DNA of 38,152 bases from a virus, in the UHGV virus genome UHGV-1370838; one strand, given 5' to 3'. The position numbers and the translations under genes were made by a program. This document shows positions 2,506 through 34,911 of this stretch, one piece after another. The notes beneath the pieces were generated by a model that was given only the letters and a program-made list of their open reading frames with translations, did no database searches and was not told where the DNA came from. Each line of letters opens with the position of its first letter. Within the stretch, counting starts at the first letter, position 1.

Positions 2506-4308
2506 TTAACCTCTCAAGAAACACGCCACAGCAACATCAAACAGGCTGGAATCCTGTATTGCCTGCTCACTTTCCCTGTTCGCTTCATCCAGTACTTCAC
2601 GCGCACTGCGCGATTGTGGATTACCATCATCATCCAGCACGGTGATTATCATGTCAGGTGATTCAAGCAGCGAGTCTTCAGCTATGCGCAGATCAATATC
2701 TCCTGCCTGATCTGACATCATTTTTTGTTCTGCCTGTTGCAATATTTTATCAGGCTCAAAAGGAGCTACTTCGTCTGGCGTCCTGACCTCTGCTGTTTTA
2801 TAGAATGAAACAGCCTGAGCATTAAGTTCACTTTCTGCCTGCTGTCTCCGAGCCAGTTCTGCTCGAGCTTCAAAAAACTGACCGCCAGGCTCGTGCGGTG
2901 CCAACGCGTTACGGGAAAATTCCAGGCGTTCTTGTGCCTGCCGGATTCGTTGATCAATATCGCGAAGTCTGGCCTGTTTATCTGATCGAGCACGAGACAA
3001 AGCTTTACCGCTACCGGTTGGCTCTTCTGCAAGAATTTGTGCACGCTGTTCAGTGAGATTTTCAATAATTCGTTGGCTATTAGCGATTTCAGACTGGTAA
3101 ACCTGTCTATCTCCACGCGGCAAAAGCTGCGCGGCCTGTTCTTCAAGCAACCGATTTTCTATAGCGCGCGCCGTTACTCCATCATCTACAGATGACAGAG
3201 CCTCATTAACTGCCTGAGACAGCAGACTCTTGCGCCAAGGAATTTCACTGAAAGATGCAGACTCAACAATGCTGGCAACGTCTACAGGTCTCCCCTGGCT
3301 AACATCAGACATAGCTTTTCGCAGAGCCTGAATGTGAGAATTGCGCGAAAGCACGTTGATCGGCACGCCGGGCGCAATATCAATTTCAGCATGATGAGCG
3401 GCATTCGCCGCCAGTGCAGCATCGATATCAACTGGTGAAAAATTTGGTGCGTTTGTAGACTCGCCGCGAGAGTTAATAAATCTGCCGACACCACCAAACG
3501 CCACCCCAAGAACAGCATCAATAGCAATTGCCTGTCGATCCAACACATCATACTGGTTAGCCATTTCGCTATAGCCACCATCACGAAGTGTTTTTGCAGT
3601 AAGCCCACGCTGTGCCATACCGAACGCAATATTTGTACCTGCGGCATAGGCAATATCTGGCGTTGCACGTACTGCTGTTGCTGCGGCGCGTCGCACTGAA
3701 CTCTCACCCGTCCGCGCAAGCTGAGCCGCCACACCTTCCGCCAGCGCACCACCAGCACGTAACCCGAGGCTCATAGGGATCAGCGTTCCGGCACCAGCAG
3801 TAATGCCCTGCACTAATCCCGCTTCCTGCGCCGTCCTGAAATCAACACCCTGTGCTGTCAGCCGTTCAAACTCAGAAAAACCCTGTAGCGAAGTTACCGC
3901 CGCTGCACCTCCGACAGGACCACCGAGCGTTGTACCGACAACAGCCTGCCCGCCCATATCGAACAACCCATAAAGAACCTGCCCAGCGGTTCCAGTTGTC
4001 GCGGCATCAGGCGTCAGCCGCTTAACCTGCTGCTCTGCTAGTTTTCTCTGCTCAGCAATGTATGAAACTGAAGTGTCATTGAGCGAGGTGTTTTCGTTAA
4101 CAAACTGAGCAATCGGGGATACGATTTTATCCATCCCTGCCCATAGCAACTGATCTGGCTTTGCCACCAGCCCGGAGTACAAACCAGACAATGCCGCTCC
4201 TACAGCATTGTCGAAAAAACCAACATCGCTGTTAAAGCCAGCTGGATTTGATGCTGCTTCGTCAAGCTGCTGATTCTGGTTTACTGGATTAAGGCCAAAG
4301 TAACTCAT
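2506..4308 (-). CDS. internal virion / ejection protein, Gly/Ala-rich N-half and coiled-coil C-half
   Basis: 600-aa ORF; ATG at 4306-4308; sits between two other large virion proteins. Confidence 0.55.
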   Translation of the reverse strand: MSYFGLNPVNQNQQLDEAASNPAGFNSDVGFFDNAVGAALSGLYSGLVAKPDQLLWAGMDKIVSPIAQFVNENTSLNDTSVSYIAEQRKLAEQQVKRLTPDAATTGTAGQVLYGLFDMGGQAVVGTTLGGPVGGAAAVTSLQGFSEFERLTAQGVDFRTAQEAGLVQGITAGAGTLIPMSLGLRAGGALAEGVAAQLARTGESSVRRAAATAVRATPDIAYAAGTNIAFGMAQRGLTAKTLRDGGYSEMANQYDVLDRQAIAIDAVLGVAFGGVGRFINSRGESTNAPNFSPVDIDAALAANAAHHAEIDIAPGVPINVLSRNSHIQALRKAMSDVSQGRPVDVASIVESASFSEIPWRKSLLSQAVNEALSSVDDGVTARAIENRLLEEQAAQLLPRGDRQVYQSEIANSQRIIENLTEQRAQILAEEPTGSGKALSRARSDKQARLRDIDQRIRQAQERLEFSRNALAPHEPGGQFFEARAELARRQQAESELNAQAVSFYKTAEVRTPDEVAPFEPDKILQQAEQKMMSDQAGDIDLRIAEDSLLESPDMIITVLDDDGNPQSRSAREVLDEANRESEQAIQDSSLFDVAVACFLRG

Positions 4309-6818
4309 TGCGGAATATCTCCGGAGAATCTCTGACGTTTCTGTGTCAGATTAAGAACAACGGGAGAACCATCATCTTTCAGCAGATAACCAGTACCAAG
4401 TTTCACCAGGTACTGACTATCGCCGTAACTTTGCAAACCATACTGACCAGGCGGTGTTTTTATCCCGGAGCCGACAACTTGTTCATTCCAAGCCTGATTA
4501 ACCTGCTTATCGAATTGCTCTGCAGACATTCCCCACGGCAAAAGGACATTCCCCATTCCGTTATAGTCATGCACGCCACCTGTAGCTACGTTAACAGCCT
4601 GTTTCCAGATATCAGTGTCAATTTCGCCTGATATCACGCCTTTTTTCGCCATCACACCAGCGTAATAGTCCTTTGCGATCTCGTATGCCATTGATGCCCC
4701 CTGAGCATCACCAGCAAATGCATCCTTCACCATGTCAGAAAACTCAAGGCGAAGATCAGCATCTTTAGGCATCGGAATACCTTTCGCATCATCAGTACCT
4801 TTACGAGCCGCCGCGCCAGTAAGAATTGTCTGCGCAGCGGTTTCAGGAGACACGGAAACATCCGGATTAAACCAGTTTTTTTCTGCCAAAATACCACCAG
4901 GCTTGTCCATCAGTATCCCGGCAACGGCAGCAGATGGAGCGTTGGCACTGATCTGCTGTAGTGCTGACATATACACCTGCCCACCACCAGTGCTCTGCCT
5001 GATGGTATCGAGATATGCTGCCTGTTGGGAAACTGGAGCATCACGAAAAAAAACACCGATCTGATTGGCCTCGTCTTTGGAAAAGAACGTCAGTGGAGTG
5101 CCATATGACTTAGCAAGGTCACTGACCTGAGCGGCACGCAAGGCAACGCTCTGTCCAAAGTTATCCTTATTGCTCATGTCGATAGGCTTTGCCTGTCCAG
5201 AGGCAAGAGAGAACTGCACAGGATCAGACTGCCGCTGCTTTATCACCTGATTTGCAGCCGAAACAACGTTGTCATAAAGAGCTGCGCGAGCCGCATAACC
5301 CTCCCCTGTCTCACCAGTATCCGGGCGTAATTGCTCAACATATGCTGTAATGCTGCTTGTCGGCATGTTGCGGAAAGAGCCTATATACTGTCCGGCGATC
5401 TGCGTATTCTTAAACTCGGTATATCGCAGGTTTCCTTCTCTGACTCCATAAGCTGCAATAAAATCAGCCTCACCAGGTGGGTTAGGAAATTCAACGCCAC
5501 GCATATACGCAGCCGTCGCATCGCGAACCTGGCTGTCAATCATCGTTTTATATTCAGCCTGCTGCTGCCGACGCAGTTGATCCGCCTGCCGCATAAAACT
5601 TGCCTGAGCCTCAGGAGATGCCGCATCGAATGCTGCATTACCGGTATAGCGTTTGGTGTTGGTTGGAATTGTTGATAAACCAAGTGCTGCACTGACACCA
5701 GCAGTTAACTGCTGATCACTGTATGGCTGGCTACCGTTCTCATGATGGATAATGGCTGCACAAAGCGCCTTCAGGGTATCAGGATTTGATGCATCGAGAG
5801 GCTCATCAGCAGAAACGCCAAGTTGTTCGCACACTGCTTTGATATACGACATAGTGTCATTTTTATCAGTAGGCGGTGCCCAGCGATTAATTATCTCGCT
5901 GACGGTATCAATACCCTGCCGCTGATACGACATCAGGTTCCGCCCTAATGCACGAATCCCGTGTTCAGGTGTTTCGAATTTAGCAAATCTACCATCATCA
6001 CCGGTCTGGCCTACCCACGGATTAGTTTTGCTGTATTCGAGATTTCCGGGGTTATTGTTGCGTATGCCACGGACACGCTCGGAAGAGCCACTATCTGTTA
6101 CAGCACGGCGAGCTCCAGCAGCAGTATCACTTAACTCGCCATTACTTTGGATGAATGCGGTCGCATTGTTTGCCGACCACTGGGACAATGCTGCATCAGC
6201 AACCTTCTCTTTAAACTCGATTTTCTTGGCCTGTATTTGCTCGTCGCTCCAGCCATGTGCAGCACCGTACTCCTCAATTTGCTGGAAAGTTTGCTTATTA
6301 GCCAATACGTATGCGGCATTGTCGCCATACAATGCTGCGGCATTTTTACCATTGTTCAGCAGCGTCGCCTGAAACTGACCTTCTTCGTAGGCATTAATTT
6401 GCCCTATCTCGTGCCGCCCGGCCTGCGTAGTGAACTGAATGCGCTGCTGCTGCGCCTGCTGCATGAAAGCATTACGAGCCTGTTCATCCGGCAGCGACAT
6501 AGCCAGTTGTTCGACCTGAGCATCAAACTGCTGCGTATACTCATGGCCTTTTCCAATAGCATTTTTCCCTTCCAGGTTAAGCAAACCTGTTTCAGGGTTA
6601 TTCAGCAGATCACTGCTTATCTGACTGAGGTTAAGAGATGCCTCCTGAGCCAGAGCGATATTGGCACGCTGTTTTGCCTGCCCCAAAACATCAATTGCCT
6701 CTGTCCCTGCCCGAACAAAAGCATCACCAATACCTGGCTGAGAAAACGTCTGCAAGCCTGCTGACTGAACTCCACGGCTCTCAACCTGGCGTCCGGATAC
6801 TGTTGGTACGACTGGCAT
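4305..6818 (-). CDS. internal virion protein with putative muralytic domain
   Basis: Start moved to ATG at 6816-6818 (GGAGG SD; TAATG overlap with upstream stop); contains GIRNNNPGNL motif that I recall from virion-associated peptidoglycan hydrolase domains. Confidence 0.6.
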   Translation of the reverse strand: MPVVPTVSGRQVESRGVQSAGLQTFSQPGIGDAFVRAGTEAIDVLGQAKQRANIALAQEASLNLSQISSDLLNNPETGLLNLEGKNAIGKGHEYTQQFDAQVEQLAMSLPDEQARNAFMQQAQQQRIQFTTQAGRHEIGQINAYEEGQFQATLLNNGKNAAALYGDNAAYVLANKQTFQQIEEYGAAHGWSDEQIQAKKIEFKEKVADAALSQWSANNATAFIQSNGELSDTAAGARRAVTDSGSSERVRGIRNNNPGNLEYSKTNPWVGQTGDDGRFAKFETPEHGIRALGRNLMSYQRQGIDTVSEIINRWAPPTDKNDTMSYIKAVCEQLGVSADEPLDASNPDTLKALCAAIIHHENGSQPYSDQQLTAGVSAALGLSTIPTNTKRYTGNAAFDAASPEAQASFMRQADQLRRQQQAEYKTMIDSQVRDATAAYMRGVEFPNPPGEADFIAAYGVREGNLRYTEFKNTQIAGQYIGSFRNMPTSSITAYVEQLRPDTGETGEGYAARAALYDNVVSAANQVIKQRQSDPVQFSLASGQAKPIDMSNKDNFGQSVALRAAQVSDLAKSYGTPLTFFSKDEANQIGVFFRDAPVSQQAAYLDTIRQSTGGGQVYMSALQQISANAPSAAVAGILMDKPGGILAEKNWFNPDVSVSPETAAQTILTGAAARKGTDDAKGIPMPKDADLRLEFSDMVKDAFAGDAQGASMAYEIAKDYYAGVMAKKGVISGEIDTDIWKQAVNVATGGVHDYNGMGNVLLPWGMSAEQFDKQVNQAWNEQVVGSGIKTPPGQYGLQSYGDSQYLVKLGTGYLLKDDGSPVVLNLTQKRQRFSGDIPQ

Positions 6819-13780: not shown

Positions 13781-14077
13781 TCACTCCTGTTCACTGGCCT
13801 CTTTGGCCATCTTCAAATACTGTGCAGGGCAATGCGCCATAACGCGCTGAAACAGTTCCAGCGCCAGATTGCGTTGCCCCTCATTAAATGCCATTGCCAT
13901 AGCGTCCATCGGTGAGATAGCGGAAAACACACGGCCTTTCTCCAGCACCGACCAGACAACGCGACGCCCCTGTTCACTGCTCATGACAAAGCGAATGTCA
14001 TCAATTTCACGCTGCGCCATGTCACGTTGCTTACGGGCGTTTTCTTCTTTCAGTTGATCGTCTTCGTAATCTGTCAT
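13781..14077 (-). CDS. small acidic protein between portal and scaffold
   Basis: 98-aa ORF; ATG overlaps portal stop (ATGA); acidic N-terminus. Confidence 0.5.
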   Translation of the reverse strand: MTDYEDDQLKEENARKQRDMAQREIDDIRFVMSSEQGRRVVWSVLEKGRVFSAISPMDAMAMAFNEGQRNLALELFQRVMAHCPAQYLKMAKEASEQE

Positions 14078-15753
14078 TGTGATTGCCCACCCTGACCACT
14101 AACTGCATTCGCCATAGCTGACAAAACACTCGGATCCGAAGTTTTAGCTTCGCTTAGCGTCTTGGCACCCTGTGCCGCCGCCATCCCCATCGCCATCATT
14201 TGTTGCTGCTGTTGTTGCTGTGCCCGTTGCTGGCGAGCCTGCTCAACCTGTTCCTGCGGAACAATGACGGTTGGAGACACTCCGGACATATCAGCGAATG
14301 CATCGATCGCCTGATCAACGTTGAGTTTGTCGAGAGCTTCTGGTTTCGCTTGCGCAAGTTGACCAATGAAGTTAACCGTGGACGCCAGACTGGACAGGCC
14401 GATAGACTTCTGCGCCTGAGCCATGACGGAAATGTATTCGACCTTCAGGGGCATACCTTCCATCGCGTCAGGCGGTGGCGGCAGCATGTTTTTACGCACC
14501 ATCATCGAGAAAGCGCGGTCAATGAGAGGGTTAAGACATTCGTCGTTCAGACGCTCCAGAACCGGCCCCAACATCAGAAGTTTTTCTTCTTTCATTTCGA
14601 TCACCGCTTCAACAGGCATCGAGCGGGTATTGATGTTCTGCAACATCATGAACAGATCGACAAAGTAGGCGCTGTTAATGATTTGACGAGTGTCCTGAAT
14701 GTCTGCTACCAGATCTGCTGTACTGGGGTTAACCAGATAAGCAGGCCTGAAACCATCCTGACCAGTAATCTGATCGATATACGTGATGTCGCCAGGAAGA
14801 AGGGAGGCGCGCTGATTCTTGAGGGAAGTCGGAGCAACCATCGGCGGATTGGTGGCTTTATCAATCAACTGCGACTTGCGCTTCTGGAGAAGCTGCAATG
14901 CCTTAACAGGTCCAAGCGCCAGCATACCCGGGCATGATGATCCATAAACATCTTCGCCATTAACTTCCCAGCGCGGAGCCATAATTGGAAACTCATCAAA
15001 TCCGGACTCACGCAACAACTTGTCGTTATCGCCACCAACCTCGTAATAAACCGATTTGAATGGCTTGTTCTTGCTATCCAGCTTCGATGTATCGCGGTCA
15101 ATGTTCGGGTAAACCGAATGCATCACGTCAATCCACTTCTCGTAGGTGCCGCTTTCCCACATGCTTTTTACGGATTCGCTGACGTTATTTAGCCCGAACT
15201 CCTGAACAAGCTGACGAACAGTCATAGAGAACTTGCGAAAACAGGTGTCCACACTGCCACGAGGTGAGTTAGCCAGGTAGTAACTGCCTATCGGGAATGG
15301 CATTGTGCGAATGATGTCCTCGTCATCCTCCAGCACCGCCATTGCACCAGTGCTGTATGTGCCGAGGCTTCCGTATAACTGCGGAAGAGACTGGTAGAGA
15401 TTCGACTTATTGAACATATCGTTCATGCGGCTCTGCACCGCCTCGAGCCACAACTTAACAGGACCATAATCCATCATTTCAGGATCTGGCGTAGCCAGGC
15501 GAAACCACGGACGCGCAGGGCTTGTGATGCCTGACATCATGCCGCTGGCGAGAGTGCGCGCCGCCATAGTCCCGGTCGAATCAATAATGCGTGTATTGCG
15601 TCGATCGTTACGGTTGACCTCAGAAGTCAGAAAGCGGGAACCACGCGGGTTGATGTAATCACTCAACTCGCGCCAGTGCGGCTCGAACGACTGACGCTCG
15701 CTTTCAAGTTGTGCGAACTGTTTGTTCAATCGCTCTTTAGTTGTTTCCGCCAT
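14074..15753 (-). CDS. portal protein (podovirus head-to-tail connector type)
   Basis: 559-aa ORF; GGAG SD; Gln/Ala/Met-rich C-terminal tail resembling T7 gp8-type portals; follows terminase. Confidence 0.85.
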   Translation of the reverse strand: MAETTKERLNKQFAQLESERQSFEPHWRELSDYINPRGSRFLTSEVNRNDRRNTRIIDSTGTMAARTLASGMMSGITSPARPWFRLATPDPEMMDYGPVKLWLEAVQSRMNDMFNKSNLYQSLPQLYGSLGTYSTGAMAVLEDDEDIIRTMPFPIGSYYLANSPRGSVDTCFRKFSMTVRQLVQEFGLNNVSESVKSMWESGTYEKWIDVMHSVYPNIDRDTSKLDSKNKPFKSVYYEVGGDNDKLLRESGFDEFPIMAPRWEVNGEDVYGSSCPGMLALGPVKALQLLQKRKSQLIDKATNPPMVAPTSLKNQRASLLPGDITYIDQITGQDGFRPAYLVNPSTADLVADIQDTRQIINSAYFVDLFMMLQNINTRSMPVEAVIEMKEEKLLMLGPVLERLNDECLNPLIDRAFSMMVRKNMLPPPPDAMEGMPLKVEYISVMAQAQKSIGLSSLASTVNFIGQLAQAKPEALDKLNVDQAIDAFADMSGVSPTVIVPQEQVEQARQQRAQQQQQQQMMAMGMAAAQGAKTLSEAKTSDPSVLSAMANAVSGQGGQSQ

Positions 15754-15767
15754 TTCAATGACTCCGG

Positions 15768-15974
15768 TTACTGACCAAGCAGCGTTTTACCGCTGGTATT
15801 AGCGGTTGATGTGTCGCCCTGAGAACCGGTAAGCAGCGTAGAACTACGACCAGCAGCAGCGCGACGGCGACGTGTTTCTTCGTCGCGGGCATCAACAACG
15901 GCGGCATCCTGCTCCTGTGGTGCTGCCTGAACTTCTGGTGTTGCAGGCACTGATGGTGAGCTACCCATGCACAT
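15768..15974 (-). CDS. small low-complexity protein upstream of portal
   Basis: 68-aa ORF; its ATG is preceded by the same 12-nt initiation region (CGGAGTCATTGA) as the portal gene. Confidence 0.4.
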   Translation of the reverse strand: MCMGSSPSVPATPEVQAAPQEQDAAVVDARDEETRRRRAAAGRSSTLLTGSQGDTSTANTSGKTLLGQ

Positions 15975-16042
15975 ATCAATGACTCCGTACGCAATTAAAT
16001 TATTACCAATTTAACCACATATGATTTATTTATCGTAGAAGG

Positions 16043-16079
16043 TTGACATTTAACGCGTGAATTATTACCTTTCAGGTAA
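16043..16079 (+). promoter_or_regulatory. -35-like TTGACA (16043-16048) followed by operator palindrome TTACCTTTCAGGTAA (16065-16079)
   Basis: Read directly; palindrome identical to the copy at 37304-37318. Confidence 0.45.
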
Positions 16080-16401
16080 CTAAAGAGCTCATTCTGGTTA
16101 CTAACCTGACTGGCTTGTCGTTAAATTAAACAGGTGGAGTGAGCTTTTATTTTGAGCAGTACGGCGTATGGCACATGCGCCGATAGCGGTCTGGATACGT
16201 TTAAGGGGCACCCTCCCTTGCTCGGGCAAACGAACCAGGTAGCCGGAATGTGCAAGTCGAGCGGTTTTATTCCGCGCACGGGGATTCACCATCCCGGCGA
16301 TTCGGTGTGACGCCTCGGAAGAGACGAGGGTACAACGATGAGAGCATTTATGGAGCCGCGACAAAGTGTGGCGCCTTAACAGGCTAAGTGCTCTCAGCGT
16401 T

Positions 16402-16478
16402 GTGGCATTAGCTCAGTCGGACAGAGCAACCGCCTTCTAAGCGGTTGGTCGCAGGTTCGAATCCTGCATGCCACGCCA
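16402..16478 (+). tRNA. tRNA-Arg (anticodon UCU)
   Basis: Cloverleaf folded by hand: acceptor GTGGCAT/ATGCCAC, D-stem GCTC/GAGC, anticodon stem ACCGC/GCGGT with loop CTTCTAA, T-stem GCAGG/CCTGC with TTCGAAT loop, discriminator G, encoded CCA. Confidence 0.9.
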
Positions 16479-16521
16479 GAATCACGCCTAAGGACCGTGA
16501 TGCCAGAAGTTCCAGGGGCTT

Positions 16522-16564
16522 GGCGGTGATGGTTTCCCTTGAAGGACTATCACCGCCCTTTTTA
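16522..16564 (+). terminator. intrinsic terminator downstream of tRNA
   Basis: GGCGGTGAT / ATCACCGCC stem with structured loop, followed by CTTTTT. Confidence 0.6.
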
Positions 16565-16641
16565 CAGCAGGACGCCATTGCGATGACTTCATGCTGTAAA
16601 CCCGTACAGCCACGGAAGGCATAACTCATTGCTTCCAGTTC

Positions 16642-16665
16642 GCCCGGTTCGCCGGGCATTTTTTT
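16642..16665 (+). terminator. hairpin GCCCGG-TTCG-CCGGGC plus T7 run, 11 nt upstream of next ATG
   Basis: Perfect 6-bp stem with TTCG tetraloop and ATTTTTTT. Confidence 0.65.
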
Positions 16666-16676
16666 AAGGTGAGATT

Positions 16677-17048
16677 ATGAACGACAAGCAAATCGAAAAA
16701 GAAATCGTTGAGAAAGGCAAAACGGCACCGCGCGTTACGCCAGACCATATCGAAGGAATTATTGCTCAGGAGGCATATTTCACAGCAGAAGATGGTGCCT
16801 TTGGCAAAGCCATAAAAGCGAAACATACTGGCGGAGAGGTAAACTACCAGCCGCACGAATCACTTTCTCTGCTGACGTTCTGCGTCCTGGTGCTGCGCAA
16901 CGGCTTCACCGTCACCGGAGAGAGCGCCTGTGCAAGCCCGGAAAACTTTGATGCAGAAATTGGTCGGAAGATTGCCCGGCAGAATGCTGTAAACAAAATC
17001 TGGATGCTCGAAGGTTACTTGCTGAAGCAGAAGCTAAGCGAGCAATAA
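16677..17048 (+). CDS. hypothetical phage protein (possibly gp49/gp66-like family)
   Basis: 123-aa ORF on opposite strand to flanking operon; AAGGTGAG SD; family assignment from memory only. Confidence 0.55.
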   Translation: MNDKQIEKEIVEKGKTAPRVTPDHIEGIIAQEAYFTAEDGAFGKAIKAKHTGGEVNYQPHESLSLLTFCVLVLRNGFTVTGESACASPENFDAEIGRKIARQNAVNKIWMLEGYLLKQKLSEQ

Positions 17049-17052
17049 CACC

Positions 17053-17064
17053 GTGACATGTCAC
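17053..17064. repeat. perfect 12-bp palindrome GTGACATGTCAC (copy 1 of 3)
   Basis: Read directly; 5 bp after stop of 16677-17048. Confidence 0.8.
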
Positions 17065-17068
17065 AAAC

Positions 17069-17097
17069 AGCCAGCCGATGAGCTGGCTTTGTTTTAT
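17069..17097 (+). terminator. intrinsic terminator
   Basis: AGCCAGC / GCTGGCT stem followed by TTTGTTTTAT. Confidence 0.6.
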
Positions 17098-17138
17098 CCT
17101 CATCAGAGGATATCAACGACATTATCCCCACCAGCGGA

Positions 17139-18614
17139 TTAAGCATAGGGATCGTAATCTGTGATGGCCTTGCCTTGCTGGTTCTGCTGCCCGGGAATTC
17201 GCAGACGCTTCGACACAGGGAACGCAAACGTCAGCAGTAGCGCATCGCCTTTACCAGGCGAACGCCCAAGCCGCTCCTTGATATCTTCCTTCGGTTCGAT
17301 AACGATTTTACCGTCCACTCGAACTTTGTACTCTGCCGCCGACAGATCGTCCGCTGTTTCCTGGTCATCCAGCATCCCGCCCAGCCTCAGCCATGTCTTG
17401 CATGAGTTGAACATCTCCCCACGCTTGTTGAGCATCTGCTGGTCAGTAGACGCGCCACCGAACGGAACAAGTTGCCATGTGCGCCCCCAACCGTCACCGA
17501 TTGACTTCAGACCGGTACCGTAACCAAAGTCGATGAACACTGCGTCAGCCTGATACAGGTCTTCAAAGTCAGCGATACGCTTCGCCATAATCAGATCGTC
17601 GGTAGTCTTGTTGCCAGTCCACAGCACCTTACTGTGTAGCCCCTGCCGCAGGTATATCACCGCGTCATCAACGCCTGAATATGCCGGGTCAACACCGATT
17701 ATCACCGGAGCATGCGCCACCTGCGCAGCGGTTACCACCCGTTTCATTGCCTCATCAGTAAGACCGGTAGGGATAAACTGCAATTCAGATGCATCAGGGA
17801 ATATGCCGCGCACACGGATTTTAACGAAGTCGCTGTCTTCCCCGTAGTCATCAACCCATTTCTGCAACTGCTGTTTGTTAGTGCCTTCCACCGTCCGGCT
17901 GTCAATCTGCGCAGTTTTCCAGCGGTGTTTATATTTGCGGAAACATTCACGGAATCGCCCGGTATTACGCGTCGGGTTTCCGAACGCCACCCAGATAATC
18001 TCAGTGTCTTCGTCCGTTAGCGCACCTTCGGCAACTTCCCACACCAGATCCGCAATGTTCGACGCTTCATCGAATACCACGATGATGCGTTTGCGCTCGT
18101 TGTGTAGTCCGGCGAATGCCTCAGTGTTGTGCTCAGACCAGGGGATTGCGTCAGCTCGCCACCGCTTGTCGTGCCCAGGATCATTGCTGTACATCGCGGT
18201 AGCGGTACAGGTAAACCAGTCTTTCGTGATAGCAAGGTTCGACCACTTGATAATTTCCGGCCAGGTCTTCGTTCGTAGCTGGTTGTCGGTGTTGGCGGTC
18301 ACCACGACCTTACAATCCTCGCAAGTGGACATGCCCCAGTTGATCAGCATTGAGATGAATGCGGATTTACCAATACCGTGACCAGAAGCGCGTGCCAGCA
18401 TAAGCGGCTGATAGCGCGTCTCTGGATTCTGCAGGTGATCACGTATCTCTCGGAACGCATCAGCCTGCCACTGACGTGGGCCGGTGGCATGTGCCAGTTC
18501 AGTCCCCTCTTCCCCCCACGGGAACGCATAGAGGGCATAGCCAAGCGGATCGTGAGTGAACCCTGCAATATCCTCGATCAACTGCTCTTCAGGAGATAAC
18601 GCTGTATCTGTCAC
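17139..18614 (-). CDS. terL: terminase large subunit
   Basis: 491-aa ORF with Walker A-like GHGIGKS; GTG start overlapping terS stop. Confidence 0.9.
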   Translation of the reverse strand: MTDTALSPEEQLIEDIAGFTHDPLGYALYAFPWGEEGTELAHATGPRQWQADAFREIRDHLQNPETRYQPLMLARASGHGIGKSAFISMLINWGMSTCEDCKVVVTANTDNQLRTKTWPEIIKWSNLAITKDWFTCTATAMYSNDPGHDKRWRADAIPWSEHNTEAFAGLHNERKRIIVVFDEASNIADLVWEVAEGALTDEDTEIIWVAFGNPTRNTGRFRECFRKYKHRWKTAQIDSRTVEGTNKQQLQKWVDDYGEDSDFVKIRVRGIFPDASELQFIPTGLTDEAMKRVVTAAQVAHAPVIIGVDPAYSGVDDAVIYLRQGLHSKVLWTGNKTTDDLIMAKRIADFEDLYQADAVFIDFGYGTGLKSIGDGWGRTWQLVPFGGASTDQQMLNKRGEMFNSCKTWLRLGGMLDDQETADDLSAAEYKVRVDGKIVIEPKEDIKERLGRSPGKGDALLLTFAFPVSKRLRIPGQQNQQGKAITDYDPYA

Positions 18615-33051: not shown

Positions 33052-34911
33052 ATGTCTTCTTTAAAATACAGAACTGATATAGGCGGACTCAGGGCTATTG
33101 CTGTCATGGCAGTTGTCCTTTATCACTTCGGAGTCAAAGGGTTTTCTGGTGGGTTTTCAGGAGTAGATATATTCTTTGTTATATCAGGGTATCTGATGAC
33201 TGGAATAATTTACACAAAGATAGAAAATGAAAACTTTTCACTGTTAGGATTTTATCTTGATAGGGCAAGAAGGATTATACCTGCTTTAACTGTAGTTTCA
33301 GTTGCTGTTCTGATAGTTGGTTACTTCATTCTTTTACCTTCTGAATATGAATACCTGGCTCAACACGTAAGAAGTAGCCTTTTATTTTTCTCAAACGTTG
33401 AGTATTACCATAGCATTGATTATTTTGATACTGCATCAAAGCAGAAATGGCTTCTTCATACATGGTCGCTTTCTGTAGAGTGGCAGTTTTACATGGTATA
33501 TCCAATCATAATGATGGTAATTGCAAAGCTATTGGGCGCTAAGCATATAAGGTATGTTGTTGCCATCCTTGCAATTATATCATTTACTGCCTCAGTGTAT
33601 CTTTCTTATAATAATCAGGGGGCTGCATTTTATCTTCTGTCAAGCAGAGCTTGGGAGATGCTGGCTGGCGGCCTTGCCTACCTTCTTCCTACTATACAAA
33701 ATTCAAAACGCACTGCTGTATTTAGATGGATTGCCATAGCCTTTGCAGTATCGGGGATAGTCTTGCTTAACAGCTTAATGAAGTGGCCTGGGTATCTTGC
33801 CTTAATACCAGTCGTTTCTACTTTCTTTGTCATTTATCTTGGATGTAAAGATAACCTGTTACTTGATAATGCATTATCTCAATGGGTTGGGAAAATTTCA
33901 TACTCGGTATATCTGGTTCACTGGCCCATAGTTGTCTATATGTCAATGAATAAGATGGATGATATGGTTTATACAGTATCAGGTGTTGCCTTATCAATTC
34001 TTATTGGTGCCGCATCATTTTATTTAATTGAAAACCCTTCAAGAAAGGCACTTTCAAAATTTAAAAACGGCAGGTCCTTGAATGAATTAACTTTAATCGT
34101 GCTACCTGTAGGTGGTGTAGTTGGTTTGTGCTTCGCTGTACTATTGCTATCTGGAATTCCATCAAGGTTTTCGTTTGTCACAATGACGTCCGAACAGCTA
34201 AAAGAACAAATGAACAGGTATTGGGTTGATGGAGACAAGCCTCACCCTGTACCGAAGACAGGTGACAAAAAAATAGTAATAATCGGTAATTCTCATGGCA
34301 TAGATCTGACTTATGCACTTACTGAAAATGGGATGAAGGGTGATATAACTTATATAAGAACTACAAACTTATGTTCAAACTTTGGTTATACACCAAACGA
34401 CATGCCCTATGTAGAAAAGTGCAAAAAAATATTCAATGACGTGATCTCATCTCCAGCCATAGCTGAAGCTAACATTATAATCCTTCATGATGATTATGGC
34501 GTTGGCGATCTGTTCGGGATGCTTTACTCTATAGGCAAAATACAGGAGAGGACTAAAGGAGAAGTTATTGTATTTGGGCCTAAGATGAAGTTTACGGCAC
34601 AGCCAATGGAAATAATTAAGTCTGCTTTTAAATCTGGCGTAAACACAGTTGATGGGATAAATAAATACTCTAAAAAGTATTATGACAATAGTAGAGTTGA
34701 AATTAACAATACGATAAAAGGCTATCTTGGTAGCAACCAGCATTCGTATAAATACATAGATACGCTTGCCGAGCAGTGCGGAAAGTCAATGAATTGTGAC
34801 ATCCTTTCTACTAAAGGTGATTATCTTTACTTTGACAATAGTCATTTCACTCTAGAAGGCTCAAGGGAGTTTGGGAAAAAATTAAAAAATGACAAGCCAT
34901 TTATTTTTTAA
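33052..34911 (+). CDS. O-antigen acetyltransferase (acyltransferase-3 membrane domain fused to SGNH-like domain, OafA/Oac-type)
   Basis: 619 aa; N-terminal GGLRAIAV...LYHF motif and about 10 TM segments; C-terminal soluble domain with GNSH; visibly AT-rich versus flanks. Confidence 0.85.
   Translation: MSSLKYRTDIGGLRAIAVMAVVLYHFGVKGFSGGFSGVDIFFVISGYLMTGIIYTKIENENFSLLGFYLDRARRIIPALTVVSVAVLIVGYFILLPSEYEYLAQHVRSSLLFFSNVEYYHSIDYFDTASKQKWLLHTWSLSVEWQFYMVYPIIMMVIAKLLGAKHIRYVVAILAIISFTASVYLSYNNQGAAFYLLSSRAWEMLAGGLAYLLPTIQNSKRTAVFRWIAIAFAVSGIVLLNSLMKWPGYLALIPVVSTFFVIYLGCKDNLLLDNALSQWVGKISYSVYLVHWPIVVYMSMNKMDDMVYTVSGVALSILIGAASFYLIENPSRKALSKFKNGRSLNELTLIVLPVGGVVGLCFAVLLLSGIPSRFSFVTMTSEQLKEQMNRYWVDGDKPHPVPKTGDKKIVIIGNSHGIDLTYALTENGMKGDITYIRTTNLCSNFGYTPNDMPYVEKCKKIFNDVISSPAIAEANIIILHDDYGVGDLFGMLYSIGKIQERTKGEVIVFGPKMKFTAQPMEIIKSAFKSGVNTVDGINKYSKKYYDNSRVEINNTIKGYLGSNQHSYKYIDTLAEQCGKSMNCDILSTKGDYLYFDNSHFTLEGSREFGKKLKNDKPFIF

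Follow-up and report, generated by a model that had tools for sequence, protein, structure and literature searches.

What is the function of a long untranslated leader that precedes a tRNA gene, two terminators and a small open reading frame, all oriented against the neighbouring genes? The question is raised by positions 15995-17138 of UHGV-1370838, an epsilon15/phiV10-like prophage whose whole 38,152 nt stretch is referred to here as the window. The unit lies between the terminase and portal genes and runs opposite to the surrounding structural genes. It is best explained as a phage-regulated early transcription unit whose main product is an RNA. Its features are listed in Table 1.

Table 1. 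Positions and properties of the features found in the opposed unit of the window.
Feature	Position	Strand	Properties
Sigma-70-type promoter	16043-16071	+	-35 TTGACA (16043-16048), 17-nt spacer, -10 TACCTT (16066-16071); read from sequence
Operator palindrome TTACCTTTCAGGTAA	16065-16079	.	overlaps -10 and start site
Leader 5' hairpin	16083-16148	+	fold -20.5 kcal/mol, z = -2.0
Conserved RNA core	16159-16333	+	covariance model R1, 135.5 bits, E = 6e-41; a match by construction, as the window sequence is among those used to build R1
Core P1	16162-16169 with 16175-16182	+	loop GGCAC
Core PK1, possible pseudoknot	16171-16174 with 16250-16253	+	
Core P2	16190-16193 with 16236-16239	+	encloses a variable hairpin
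Core 19-mer GGUAGCCGGAAUGUGCAAG (19 nt)	16238-16256	+	almost invariant
Core P3			variable
Core P4	16281-16284 with 16292-16295	+	loop UCACC
Core PK2, pseudoknot	16287-16290 with 16304-16307	+	
Core P5	16313-16317 with 16325-16329	+	loop GAAGAGA
3' three-way-junction domain	16334-16404	+	closed by CAACGAUGAGAGCA / UGCUCUCAGCGUUG; ends in GUUGUGG motif
tRNA-Arg(UCU), CCA encoded	16402-16478	+	ARAGORN; Rfam RF00005, 73.3 bits against a gathering threshold of 29
T1, terminator-like hairpin	16522-16566	+	14-bp hairpin (16522-16557), then CUUUUUACA; terminator scan, fold
T2, strong intrinsic terminator	16642-16665	+	hairpin GCCCGGUUCGCCGGGC (16642-16657), then AUUUUUUU; terminator scan, fold
123-aa open reading frame, Phage_gp49_66	16677-17048	+	PF13876, E = 8.9e-35, 119.5 bits against a cutoff of 27, full profile
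T3 hairpin	17069-17088	.	between the convergent Gp49 frame and the large terminase gene; terminator scan, fold

Promoter, terminators and tRNA of the unit

A first-pass annotation of this DNA had placed a TTGACA promoter with an operator at 16043-16079, and both are found there. The transcript is predicted to start near 16078-16080. The -10 hexamer is weak, and the promoter is absent from the list produced by a consensus scan; epsilon15 and one Klebsiella phage share its -35 element and its operator. The palindrome TTACC-N5-GGTAA is present in 14 copies in the window, against 0.54 expected. This excess, found mostly between genes, points to a real regulatory site. The homologous operator is annotated as a repressor binding site in the epsilon15 record, and the operator at the promoter appears to be bound by the prophage repressor.

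The two hairpin and U-run terminators of the first-pass annotation, the second of which ends 11 nt before the ATG of the open reading frame, are confirmed. A third, T3, is also present and is annotated as a rho-independent terminator in the phiV10 record. Four terminator-like hairpins are found with 2.0 expected, a count that is not in itself above chance; T1 and T2 are conserved in homologues, with compensating changes in their stems. The T1 stem varies in sequence among relatives and retains its pairing. A conserved motif, CCGCCCUUUUUACA (16553-16566), spans its 3' strand and tail, and by sequence T1 looks like a terminator with a tail that resembles boxA. Of 84 distinct leaders, 39 have this motif, CCGCYCUUUUUACA, 3' of the core, whereas its background rate is 0.0015 per kb. 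At the position of T2, other epsilon15-like phages display GCCCACUUCGGUGGGC, GCCCGCCCCGUGCGGGC or similar stems, always followed by AUUUUUUU and then by an open reading frame.

This frame, named 'Gp49 family protein' in RefSeq, occupies a variable cargo slot in which relatives hold other proteins. The slot behind T2 is the sole variable part of the unit among epsilon15-like relatives (Gp49, DUF2829 and others), and the block of promoter, RNA, tRNA and terminators is kept in epsilon15-like phages of Escherichia, Klebsiella, Enterobacter and Salmonella. Some 600 nt, with two terminators, lie between the only promoter and the Gp49 frame. A consensus scan revealed no promoter-like site between the terminators and the ATG of this frame, and neither the scan nor a reading of the sequence turned up a promoter between T1 and T2. 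Lacking a promoter of its own, the frame depends on read-through for expression, as had been proposed.

The tRNA-Arg(UCU) that had been reported is real. It is carried, however, by only 29 of 130 loci of the RNA family described below, and the RNA, not the tRNA, is therefore the constant part. Same-strand tRNAs directly flank the RNA in 47 of the 130 loci. Among 93 distinct leaders, the tRNA starts exactly at GUU|GUGG in 20. In 24 others its place is taken by a cloverleaf-like domain with the closure GUGGUGA / UCACCAC, a stem of 6 bp or more, and one of these 24 has an anticodon-like CUUUUAA loop. A cloverleaf-like domain is also what lambdoid relatives have in the slot held here by the tRNA. 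An RNase P cut at the 5' end of the tRNA would free the upstream RNA.

The codon AGA makes up 5.9 of every 1000 codons in the prophage as a whole, and roughly 2 of every 1000 in E. coli. Its rate peaks in the tail genes, one lysis-region gene and the acyltransferase gene at 33052-34911, which has 8 AGA, 9 AGG and only 1 CGN codon. The enrichment expected by the first-pass annotation is thus present, but the suggested link of the tRNA to the acyltransferase is not supported. Behind a promoter with an apparent repressor operator the tRNA would be silent in the lysogen, and so it could not serve a lysogenic-conversion acyltransferase. The tRNA fits the AGA-rich tail and lysis genes better.

A structured RNA family in early leaders of temperate phages

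The ~320 nt ahead of the tRNA had been described as lacking a credible open reading frame and as possibly encoding a structured RNA. Both statements stand, the second strongly so, on the evidence of pairing and compensatory change. In 138 distinct homologues no conserved reading frame was found; all six frames through the invariant core are interrupted, with a minimum of 5-20 and a median of 22-69 open codons per frame. A protein-coding leader was accordingly rejected on the lack of a conserved frame and on a blank Pfam search. An Rfam search of the leader and tRNA, which had also been suggested, matched the tRNA and left the leader unmatched: with Rfam 15, positions 16080-16400 gave no match even at E <= 10, riboswitches, ribozymes, sRNAs, GOLLD, ROOL, C4 and YrlA included. 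At gathering thresholds, no match was found at the RNA itself in 12 related loci. Over the window and these loci, the Rfam searches gave only tRNAs and unrelated C4, isrK and STnc100 RNAs elsewhere.

The core represents a large structured-RNA family that is uncatalogued in Rfam 15. The segment in the window displays the elements that define the family, namely P1, P2, P4, PK2 and P5 together with the near-invariant 19-mer, and independent support for model R1 comes from 76 further matches of 56-159 bits. In an alignment of 73 distinct sequences, ~97% of cells at paired positions can pair, against 25-43% in slid controls, and 13 pairs, including one in a pseudoknot, show compensatory changes (206 cells). 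When 39 sequences were aligned independently with MAFFT the figure was 94%, against 24-45% in slid controls, with 12 pairs changed on both sides. In the 73-sequence alignment, the PK2 pseudoknot displays a C-G to A-U exchange in 6 sequences. PK1 is invariant, and covariation speaks neither for it nor against it. RNAalifold proposed a long-range helix, GGCACAU/AUGUGCC, in place of P1. This was rejected, as P1 is backed by exchanges of G-C to A-U and C-G; the long-range contact is an unproven candidate for a 4-bp pseudoknot. An extension of P2 (columns 44-121 of the 73-sequence alignment) was also dropped, since it fails in 20 of 71 sequences.

The 3' strand of the 5' hairpin, GGAGUGAGCUU, resembles a strand that recurs in related leaders, and a homologue of the hairpin is present in the Klebsiella phage. 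The three-way-junction domain has a predicted fold of -37.4 kcal/mol (z = -6.0) and is optional within the family; where relatives have it, its closing stem is kept through compensating changes. Of 84 distinct leaders, 77 have a GUUGUGG-type motif 3' of the core; the background rate of this motif is 0.16 per kb.

Exact-word scans of public genomes detected the core RNA in 1839 of 5426 complete E. coli genomes, about a third, and it is annotated in none of them. Lambdoid carriers include the cdtI, mEp460, 2H10, Stx2c and Stx2a_1447 phages, where the order is the cI gene, a terminator, a near-consensus PL-like promoter with an operator palindrome, and then the RNA. Ten diverse proteins encoded upstream in the same orientation were tested, and all proved to be CI-type repressors, with several immunity types among them; in many loci the RNA starts 5-50 nt past a promoter that matches 9-11 of 12 consensus positions. 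In P1 and P7 the core is found inside the C1-controlled ban operon; in P1-like phages ban lies directly 3' of the core, and neither the T1 motif nor GUUGUGG is present. The orientation of the RNA is always that of the downstream genes. In three unrelated kinds of temperate phage, the RNA thus consistently comes first after a repressor-controlled early promoter. Some phages carry it in two copies. At some loci an open reading frame with a Shine-Dalgarno sequence begins ~25 nt past P5, with no terminator or processing signal between.

In lambdoid phages, core carriers display an untranslated gap of 640-780 nt at the position of N. No N gene is annotated in this gap in the carriers examined, and none of nine early-left proteins of mEp460 scanned against PHROG matches an antiterminator-named group. 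Hypothetical proteins are annotated across the RNA, on either strand, in the records of phiV10 (p04), mEp460 (gp037) and others. Current annotation practice either leaves the stretch blank or mislabels it in this way. No account of the RNA was found in the literature searched, on phiV10 and epsilon15, on the ban operon of P1, on structured RNAs of prophages and on antitermination of the put type, and an earlier description is possible.

Possible functions of the RNA

Many lambdoid phages lack an N gene, which raises the question of how their early genes are expressed, and Casjens and colleagues point out that such phages may use RNA-mediated antitermination (PMC12315714). In HK022 and HK639, PL-adjacent RNA alone can achieve antitermination (PMC9378689), and the mEp phages were isolated as Nus-dependent (PMC11893012). 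By analogy, it is hypothesized that the core is a cis-acting early-leader RNA, an analogue of the nut and put sites, that would make RNA polymerase resistant to termination. This is a tentative reading, with a probability of about 0.4. The operator-overlapped promoter would drive a long untranslated precursor consisting of the 5' hairpin, the ~175-nt core, the three-way junction, the tRNA-Arg(UCU) and T1 with its boxA-like tail. The core might act in cis on the polymerase that has just made it, either alone or with host Nus factors recruited by the boxA-like tail, and passage of T1, T2 and Rho-dependent stops would be limited to transcripts begun at this promoter. It would be a functional analogue of lambda nut and HK022 put with a different fold. 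The tRNA would be a passenger in a well-transcribed, Rho-protected, untranslated leader and would help lytic genes by decoding AGA; RNase P, in processing this tRNA, would cut the RNA off from the remaining transcript.

Antitermination by the core would explain the expression of an open reading frame that lies behind terminators. The core is found 190-560 nt from the terminators, with unrelated modules, the tRNA among them, inserted between. Such spacing agrees with a processive mechanism, not with alternative pairing at short range, and it speaks against an ordinary local attenuator in the leader; the first-pass annotation had called the read-through attenuator-like. On the other hand, the case for this function is built from position and analogy, and the core is unrelated to put. 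The boxA-like tail, CGCCCUUUUUA, is off consensus when compared with the boxA of rrn, UGCUCUUUA, and of lambda, CGCUCUUA (PMC2724277). The P1-like arrangement, in which the core runs directly to ban with neither 3' motif, also speaks against this function, and a terminator-proof polymerase in the present unit would enter the terminase genes antisense if it were not halted at T3. The tRNA and most of the core have been lost from epsilon15, which is still a viable phage, so that the core RNA is dispensable, at least in the laboratory. PK1 is invariant, and repressor binding at the operator is itself something that we infer.

The ends that flanking tRNAs and tRNA-like domains would define fit a released, trans-acting RNA equally well, and this is the main rival, although a somewhat unlikely one. 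Here the core, with or without its 3' domain, would be cut from the precursor as a stable, processed early RNA. The 3' cut would be made by RNase P at the tRNA or the tRNA-like domain, and in P1 the 5' end would be set by maturation of an upstream tRNA. The freed RNA would bind a conserved host factor, as an agent of host takeover, a decoy for a defence nuclease or a sponge, and T1 and T2 would be the true end of the unit, with the open reading frame expressed by leakage only. The flanking tRNAs at 47 loci and the domains in the tRNA slot of 24 further leaders are consistent with this, as are the two copies in some phages and the strong terminators that come after the RNA in epsilon15-like phages. 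Long invariant single-stranded stretches suggest a conserved binding partner, and processing of phage RNAs by RNase P has precedents in P1 c4 and P4 CI. Yet the RNA almost always heads a multi-gene early operon and is not a free-standing gene, the P1 RNA runs straight into ban, and the loci where a frame with a Shine-Dalgarno sequence closely follows P5 show no terminator or processing signal. Improbable is a riboswitch-like sensor or attenuator, in which the core would act as an aptamer that recognizes a small molecule, protein or tRNA, setting the passage of T1 and T2 and coupling the lytic programme to host physiology. Its place in a 5' leader would suit such a role, and a compact pseudoknotted fold with invariant junction nucleotides and variable peripheral stems is typical of aptamers; a conserved terminator-like hairpin also lies 3' of the core. 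But the distance between core and terminator differs by hundreds of bases with whole modules inserted, no alternative pairing was seen between T1 or T2 and the core, ban in P1 is not preceded by a terminator, and the core resembles no Rfam riboswitch class.

The first-pass annotation regarded the unit as a moron. In its full form this would be a recent acquisition with a functionless leader, a tRNA compensating for AGA-rich acquired genes and a simple leaky attenuator, and it is very improbable. There is a likeness to morons in the opposed unit between terminase and portal genes, the exchangeable open reading frame and the terminator behind it; the tRNA is real, and AGA and AGG are enriched in the acyltransferase and some lytic genes. 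A moron frame is directly served by its own promoter and usually deviates in composition, whereas the Gp49 frame is promoterless behind two terminators and has a G+C of 0.49, the same as that of its neighbours. The conserved part is the RNA block, and the leader, with compensatory changes over 73 distinct sequences, is the most conserved part of all. The block is common to epsilon15-like phages of four genera, and the RNA is found in three unrelated phage types, mostly without any tRNA. The moron picture is already contradicted by the covariation and distribution results. Even less credible is the idea that the stretch is not an RNA at all but a small protein-coding gene, as annotated in phiV10 p04 and mEp460 gp037, or a site acting at the DNA level. 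It draws on the several records that place hypothetical proteins there on either strand, and it conflicts with the lack of a conserved frame, with substitutions that preserve base pairs and not codons, with the blank Pfam result for an 87-aa frame, and with an orientation that is always that of the downstream genes.

To return to antitermination, a broader form of this reading is held somewhat less firmly than the cis-acting role itself. The core might represent a third class of phage RNA, unrelated in structure to the others, that acts by reprogramming a conserved host machine. This would most plausibly be RNA polymerase, made resistant to terminators and to Rho with no phage protein involved. 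The core would at the same time be a mobile early-leader module common to epsilon15-like, lambdoid and P1-like temperate phages. If so, such an RNA has been overlooked in P1 and in one out of three complete E. coli genomes. To our knowledge, RNA-only control of elongation in phages is known from a single small family, put. The present family is well supported, lies at the position of nut and put sites and is found in Stx-converting phages, in P1 and in common prophages of E. coli, Klebsiella and Salmonella; it offers a concrete candidate for antitermination in phages without N. Action in trans would instead make it a phage RNA of very wide distribution with a conserved host factor as its binding partner.

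Likeness to known RNA elements

The closest parallel in position is put (putL and putR of HK022, the putL-like RNA of HK639), which acts without any phage protein (PMC9378689). Both put and the core are structured RNAs immediately 3' of a repressor-controlled PL in lambdoid phages without an N gene, and both can be present as a single PL-side copy, as annotated in HK639. This position is found in the lambdoid relatives; in the window its equivalent is the operator-bearing promoter. The terminator resistance that put confers on RNA polymerase in cis depends on the beta-prime zinc-binding domain. The two differ in that put has two stem-loops in ~70 nt (126 nt in the HK639 annotation), whereas the core comprises five helices and one or more pseudoknots in ~150-180 nt and is found also in epsilon15-like podophages and P1-like phages. 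Model R1 gave no match in the PL and PR regions of HK022 or in the whole HK639 genome, annotated putL-like RNA included, and reading of the HK022 and HK639 regions revealed no motif shared with the core RNA. Kinship with put was therefore rejected.

As with nut sites and rrn leaders, the RNA is promoter-proximal in a long transcript, and a hairpin is followed by a boxA-like CGCYCUUUUUACA tail, with GU-rich UGUGG/UGUGUGG motifs further on. The order of hairpin, boxA-like tail and GU-rich motif is the same as boxB-boxA-boxC of the rrn leader, with a tail that departs from the rrn consensus boxA to which NusB and NusE bind, and tRNA genes embedded in an untranslated transcript are a further likeness to rrn. 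P5, with a 5-bp stem and a purine-rich GAAGAGA loop, resembles boxB, the lambda nutL boxB loop being GAAGA. However, the boxA-like tail forms part of a terminator-like hairpin, and neither nut nor the rrn leader has anything like the large pseudoknotted core. In a lambda-type nut site boxA precedes a boxB hairpin bound by N, a phage protein with an arginine-rich motif; here there is only the boxA-like element, which comes after a hairpin, and no N-like protein was found in the carriers examined or among the scanned mEp460 proteins.

GOLLD and ROOL are likewise phage-borne, elaborately structured and often adjoin tRNAs. At ~600-800 nt they are far larger, they are found in other bacterial groups, and their Rfam models do not match the core RNA. 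The c4 RNAs of P1 and P7 and the CI RNA of P4 are small RNAs from repressor-linked operons that are matured by RNase P through tRNA-like features, and they share with the present family a tRNA or tRNA-like domain adjoining a core RNA. The Rfam C4 model misses the core RNA, but it finds matches elsewhere in the same lambdoid phages.

Prophage locus and control of the unit

By its sequence, the window is identified as an Escherichia coli prophage of the epsilon15/phiV10-like kind (Uetakevirus). Region 15900-17200 shares 95.6% identity with phiV10 and up to 99.9% with prophages of complete E. coli genomes, where it is labelled 'tRNA-Arg', 'Gp49 family protein', 'terminase' and 'portal protein'. 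The unit occupies a 1.16-kb gap, with the large terminase gene on one side and a small gene and the portal gene on the other. Every feature proposed in the first-pass annotation, i.e., the -35 element, operator, tRNA-Arg(UCU), terminator hairpins and open reading frame (ORF), was found; both ARAGORN and Rfam call the tRNA. Public records already annotate the tRNA, the Gp49 ORF and the terminator.

Features of the prophage, in window coordinates
Feature	Position	Strand	Remarks
Promoter -35, TTGACA	16043-16048	plus	17-nt spacer to -10
Promoter -10, TACCTT	16066-16071	plus	read from sequence
Operator palindrome, TTACCTTTCAGGTAA	16065-16079		overlaps -10
TTACC-N5-GGTAA copies	16065, 19207, 19225, 22104, 22166, 24112, 24449, 24497, 25209, 25271, 30823, 32757, 33001, 37304
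tRNA-Arg(UCU)	16402-16478	plus	two methods agree
Terminator 1, hairpin and U-run	16522-16557	plus
Terminator 2, hairpin and U-run	16642-16657	plus
Terminator 3, hairpin and U-run	17069-17088	plus
ORF, Phage_gp49_66 protein	16677-17048	plus	Pfam match
Portal gene	14074-15753	minus
Small gene	15768-15974	minus
Large terminase gene	17139-18614	minus
Acyltransferase gene	33052-34911		low GC (0.37); Acyl_transf_3 and SGNH domains

Palindromes of the form TTACC-N5-GGTAA number 14 in the window (0.54 expected) and are mostly intergenic; one lies directly 5′ of the acyltransferase gene. They are dispersed as are the many scattered operators of phage P1, unlike a single immunity region. Because the palindrome is over-represented and the homologous site in the epsilon15 record is labelled a repressor binding site, the promoter of the unit is taken to be under phage control and probably shut off in the lysogen. 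No promoter-like site was found between the terminators and the start of the ORF. In epsilon15-like phages terminator 2 is strong and always directly 5′ of an exchangeable ORF; its stem sequence varies among phages.

AGA makes up 5.9 of every 1000 codons in the prophage, about triple the E. coli average (∼2 per 1000). It is absent from the head, portal and terminase genes; its rate rises to 8-18 per 1000 codons in several tail genes and to 31 in one gene of the lysis region. In the acyltransferase gene, probably the O-antigen acetylase of the epsilon15/phiV10-like group, 17 of 18 arginine codons are AGA or AGG (8 AGA, 9 AGG, 1 CGN). The AGA/AGG enrichment proposed earlier thus holds, but the suggestion that the tRNA serves this gene fits poorly if the repressor binds this operator, which would keep the tRNA silent during lysogeny, just when conversion genes are normally expressed. 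For this reason, aid to lytic genes is the better fit.

A conserved leader RNA and its fold

The leader represents a family of phage early-leader RNAs with a fold unrelated to known examples. It is absent from Rfam 15 (a search of 16080-16400 gave no match even at E ≤ 10) and carries no RNA annotation in any record examined. No published description was found in the literature searched; an earlier report is possible. The leader DNA is conserved in Klebsiella, Enterobacter and Salmonella relatives. Unexpectedly, it also shares ∼82% identity with non-coding DNA of lambdoid phages (cdtI, mEp460, 2H10, Ayreon, Stx2c and Stx2a phages) and ∼80% with P1, P7, D6, SJ46 and RCS47. Scans of viral contigs detected an invariant 17-mer in at least 120 loci and a second conserved pattern in at least 120, and an exact 19-mer recurs across roughly a dozen Enterobacteriaceae genera. 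Of 5426 complete E. coli genomes, 1839 carry the 175-nt core, on chromosomes and P1-like plasmids and in at most four copies each; none of the 1839 annotates it. In several GenBank records (phiV10 p04, mEp460 gp037 and others) hypothetical proteins are drawn across the RNA or tRNA on either strand; these are likely mis-annotations.

The core model consists of helix P1 (loop GGCAC), helix P2 around a variable hairpin, the variable P3, helix P4, whose loop UCACC forms pseudoknot PK2 with a downstream GGUG, helix P5 (loop GAAGAGA) and a possible second pseudoknot, PK1. When 39 distinct sequences were aligned independently with MAFFT, invariant blocks alternated with variable stems, and 94% of cells paired versus 24-45% with slid partners; 12 pairs are changed on both sides, and none of 500 shuffles matched the score of the real alignment. 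In a covariance-model alignment of 73 distinct sequences, which is biased to nested helices and not to the pseudoknots (absent from the model), 97% of cells pair and 13 two-sided changed pairs cover 206 cells. Six sequences replace CACC:GGUG of PK2 by AACC:GGUU. PK1 shows no variation across the aligned sequences and is therefore kept as hypothetical. The early guess of a structured RNA is thus borne out by a large family with two-sided pair changes. A protein-coding leader is effectively excluded, as no conserved reading frame runs through it.

Two related loci (L161, 8821-8900; L176, 5506-5620) carry a half-size variant, in which only the 3′ half of the family core is kept (AUGYGCAAG, P3, P4, PK2 and P5), fused to an unrelated 5′ part behind a consensus promoter (TTGACA, 17-nt spacer, TAATAT). 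This suggests that the core is composed of two modules. One viral contig (L028, minus strand) has two copies of the RNA in the same orientation ∼800 nt apart (3996-4155 and 4803-4960; 123 and 159 bits). The type phage epsilon15 (locus L004, AY150271.2) keeps only helix P1 and the start of P2 (2293-2384), just beyond the record's 'RNaseIII' site (locus 2198-2297); a deletion has removed the remainder of the core along with the tRNA and one half of terminator 1.

Elements downstream of the core

A long hairpin ending in GUUGUGG usually lies 3′ of the core (77 of 84 distinct leaders; background 0.16 per kb). Farther 3′, 39 of the 84 have CCGCYCUUUUUACA, a hairpin 3′ strand plus tail (background 0.0015 per kb) that in the window is terminator 1; the element's sequence is more conserved than a terminator requires. 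It is similar to boxA of rrn (UGCUCUUUA) and lambda (CGCUCUUA) (PMC2724277), with no exact match.

A real tRNA begins exactly at the GUU/GUGG point in 20 of 93 distinct leaders. In 24 others this slot holds a domain closed by a 6 or 7 bp stem, typically GUGGUGA/UCACCAC, that folds cloverleaf-like. The tRNA-Arg of epsilon15-like phages thus fills a slot held by a tRNA-like domain in lambdoid relatives, and both flanks are homologous between the two groups. Among 130 loci, tRNA-Arg(UCU) is just 3′ of the RNA in 29, a CAU-anticodon tRNA just 5′ in 18 (the P1-like ones), and 83 have no tRNA. Different tRNAs use the slot: in Phytobacter ursingii (L136) an ARAGORN tRNA-Ile(AAU) begins two bases past GUU/GUGG (∼437-515 nt past a point 90 nt downstream of the invariant segment), and locus L099 has, on the core's own strand and ∼370 nt farther 3′, an unusually long (127-nt) Rfam tRNA match. 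In one cloverleaf-like domain (L017, locus minus strand, RNA direction, ∼165-260 nt after the 17-mer) the acceptor-like stem is 7 bp long, and a 5-bp arm is capped by the 7-nt loop CUUUUAA, whose UUU resembles an anticodon. The domain also has a long extra arm, and its T-like arm ends in a 9-nt loop. It is not called as a tRNA by ARAGORN and could be an RNase P substrate or tRNA mimic.

Genomic context and possible function

The strongest hint of function comes from genomic position. Lambdoid carriers have a cI-type repressor gene with its terminator, then a near-consensus promoter that bears an operator palindrome, and next the RNA, ahead of the early-left operon. Ten diverse proteins encoded upstream are without exception repressors with HTH and S24 domains, or HTH alone, and span several immunity types. 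In P1/P7 the RNA is 18 nt 3′ of tRNA3 and ∼100 nt 5′ of ban, inside the operon under the C1 operator Op(ban), and in the window a dispersed operator overlies the leader promoter. In three unrelated kinds of temperate phage, therefore, the primary repressor appears to control the promoter from which the RNA is made, and in most cases the RNA is the first thing transcribed.

By analogy, the leader RNA may act in cis on transcription elongation, a reading to which a probability of roughly 40% is assigned. It sits where every studied lambdoid phage has nut or put. Hundreds of untranslated bases normally invite Rho, and the lambdoid carriers must cross an untranslated gap of 640-780 nt and terminator-like hairpins with no recognisable N: no N gene is annotated in them, and of the mEp460 early-left proteins compared with PHROGs, none was recognisable as N. 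In addition, mEp phages were isolated as Nus-dependent (PMC11893012), and in HK022/HK639 RNA adjoining PL can render polymerase terminator-resistant (PMC9378689). Antitermination in cis would allow expression of an ORF starting 11 nt past a textbook terminator, a puzzle raised in the first-pass annotation; the simple moron proposed there is effectively excluded. However, the leader is unrelated to put of HK022 and HK639, phage P1 lacks a terminator from the RNA to ban, and epsilon15 is viable though most of the core and the tRNA are lost.

The main rival, somewhat less probable, has the RNA acting in trans after processing, with RNase P cutting it free at the tRNA or tRNA-like domain beside it. 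An attenuator sensing a ligand or factor is a still less likely possibility; the distance from core to terminator is too variable for local alternative pairing, which favours the elongation role.

Two further observations concern relatives. Phages cdtI (L005, 777-965) and mEp460 (L007, 706-894) carry, on the minus strand, two neighbouring Rfam RNAs, the C4 antisense RNA and isrK, which lie inside or beside the antirepressor gene on the PR side. In loci of the Stenotrophomonas phage BUCT709 type (L010, L078), many P5-like hairpin repeats with loops GGAAAGAC or GGGAAGAC (e.g., CAGCCCGGAAAGACGGGCG) flank the core on both sides, reminiscent of boxB-type protein-binding hairpins.
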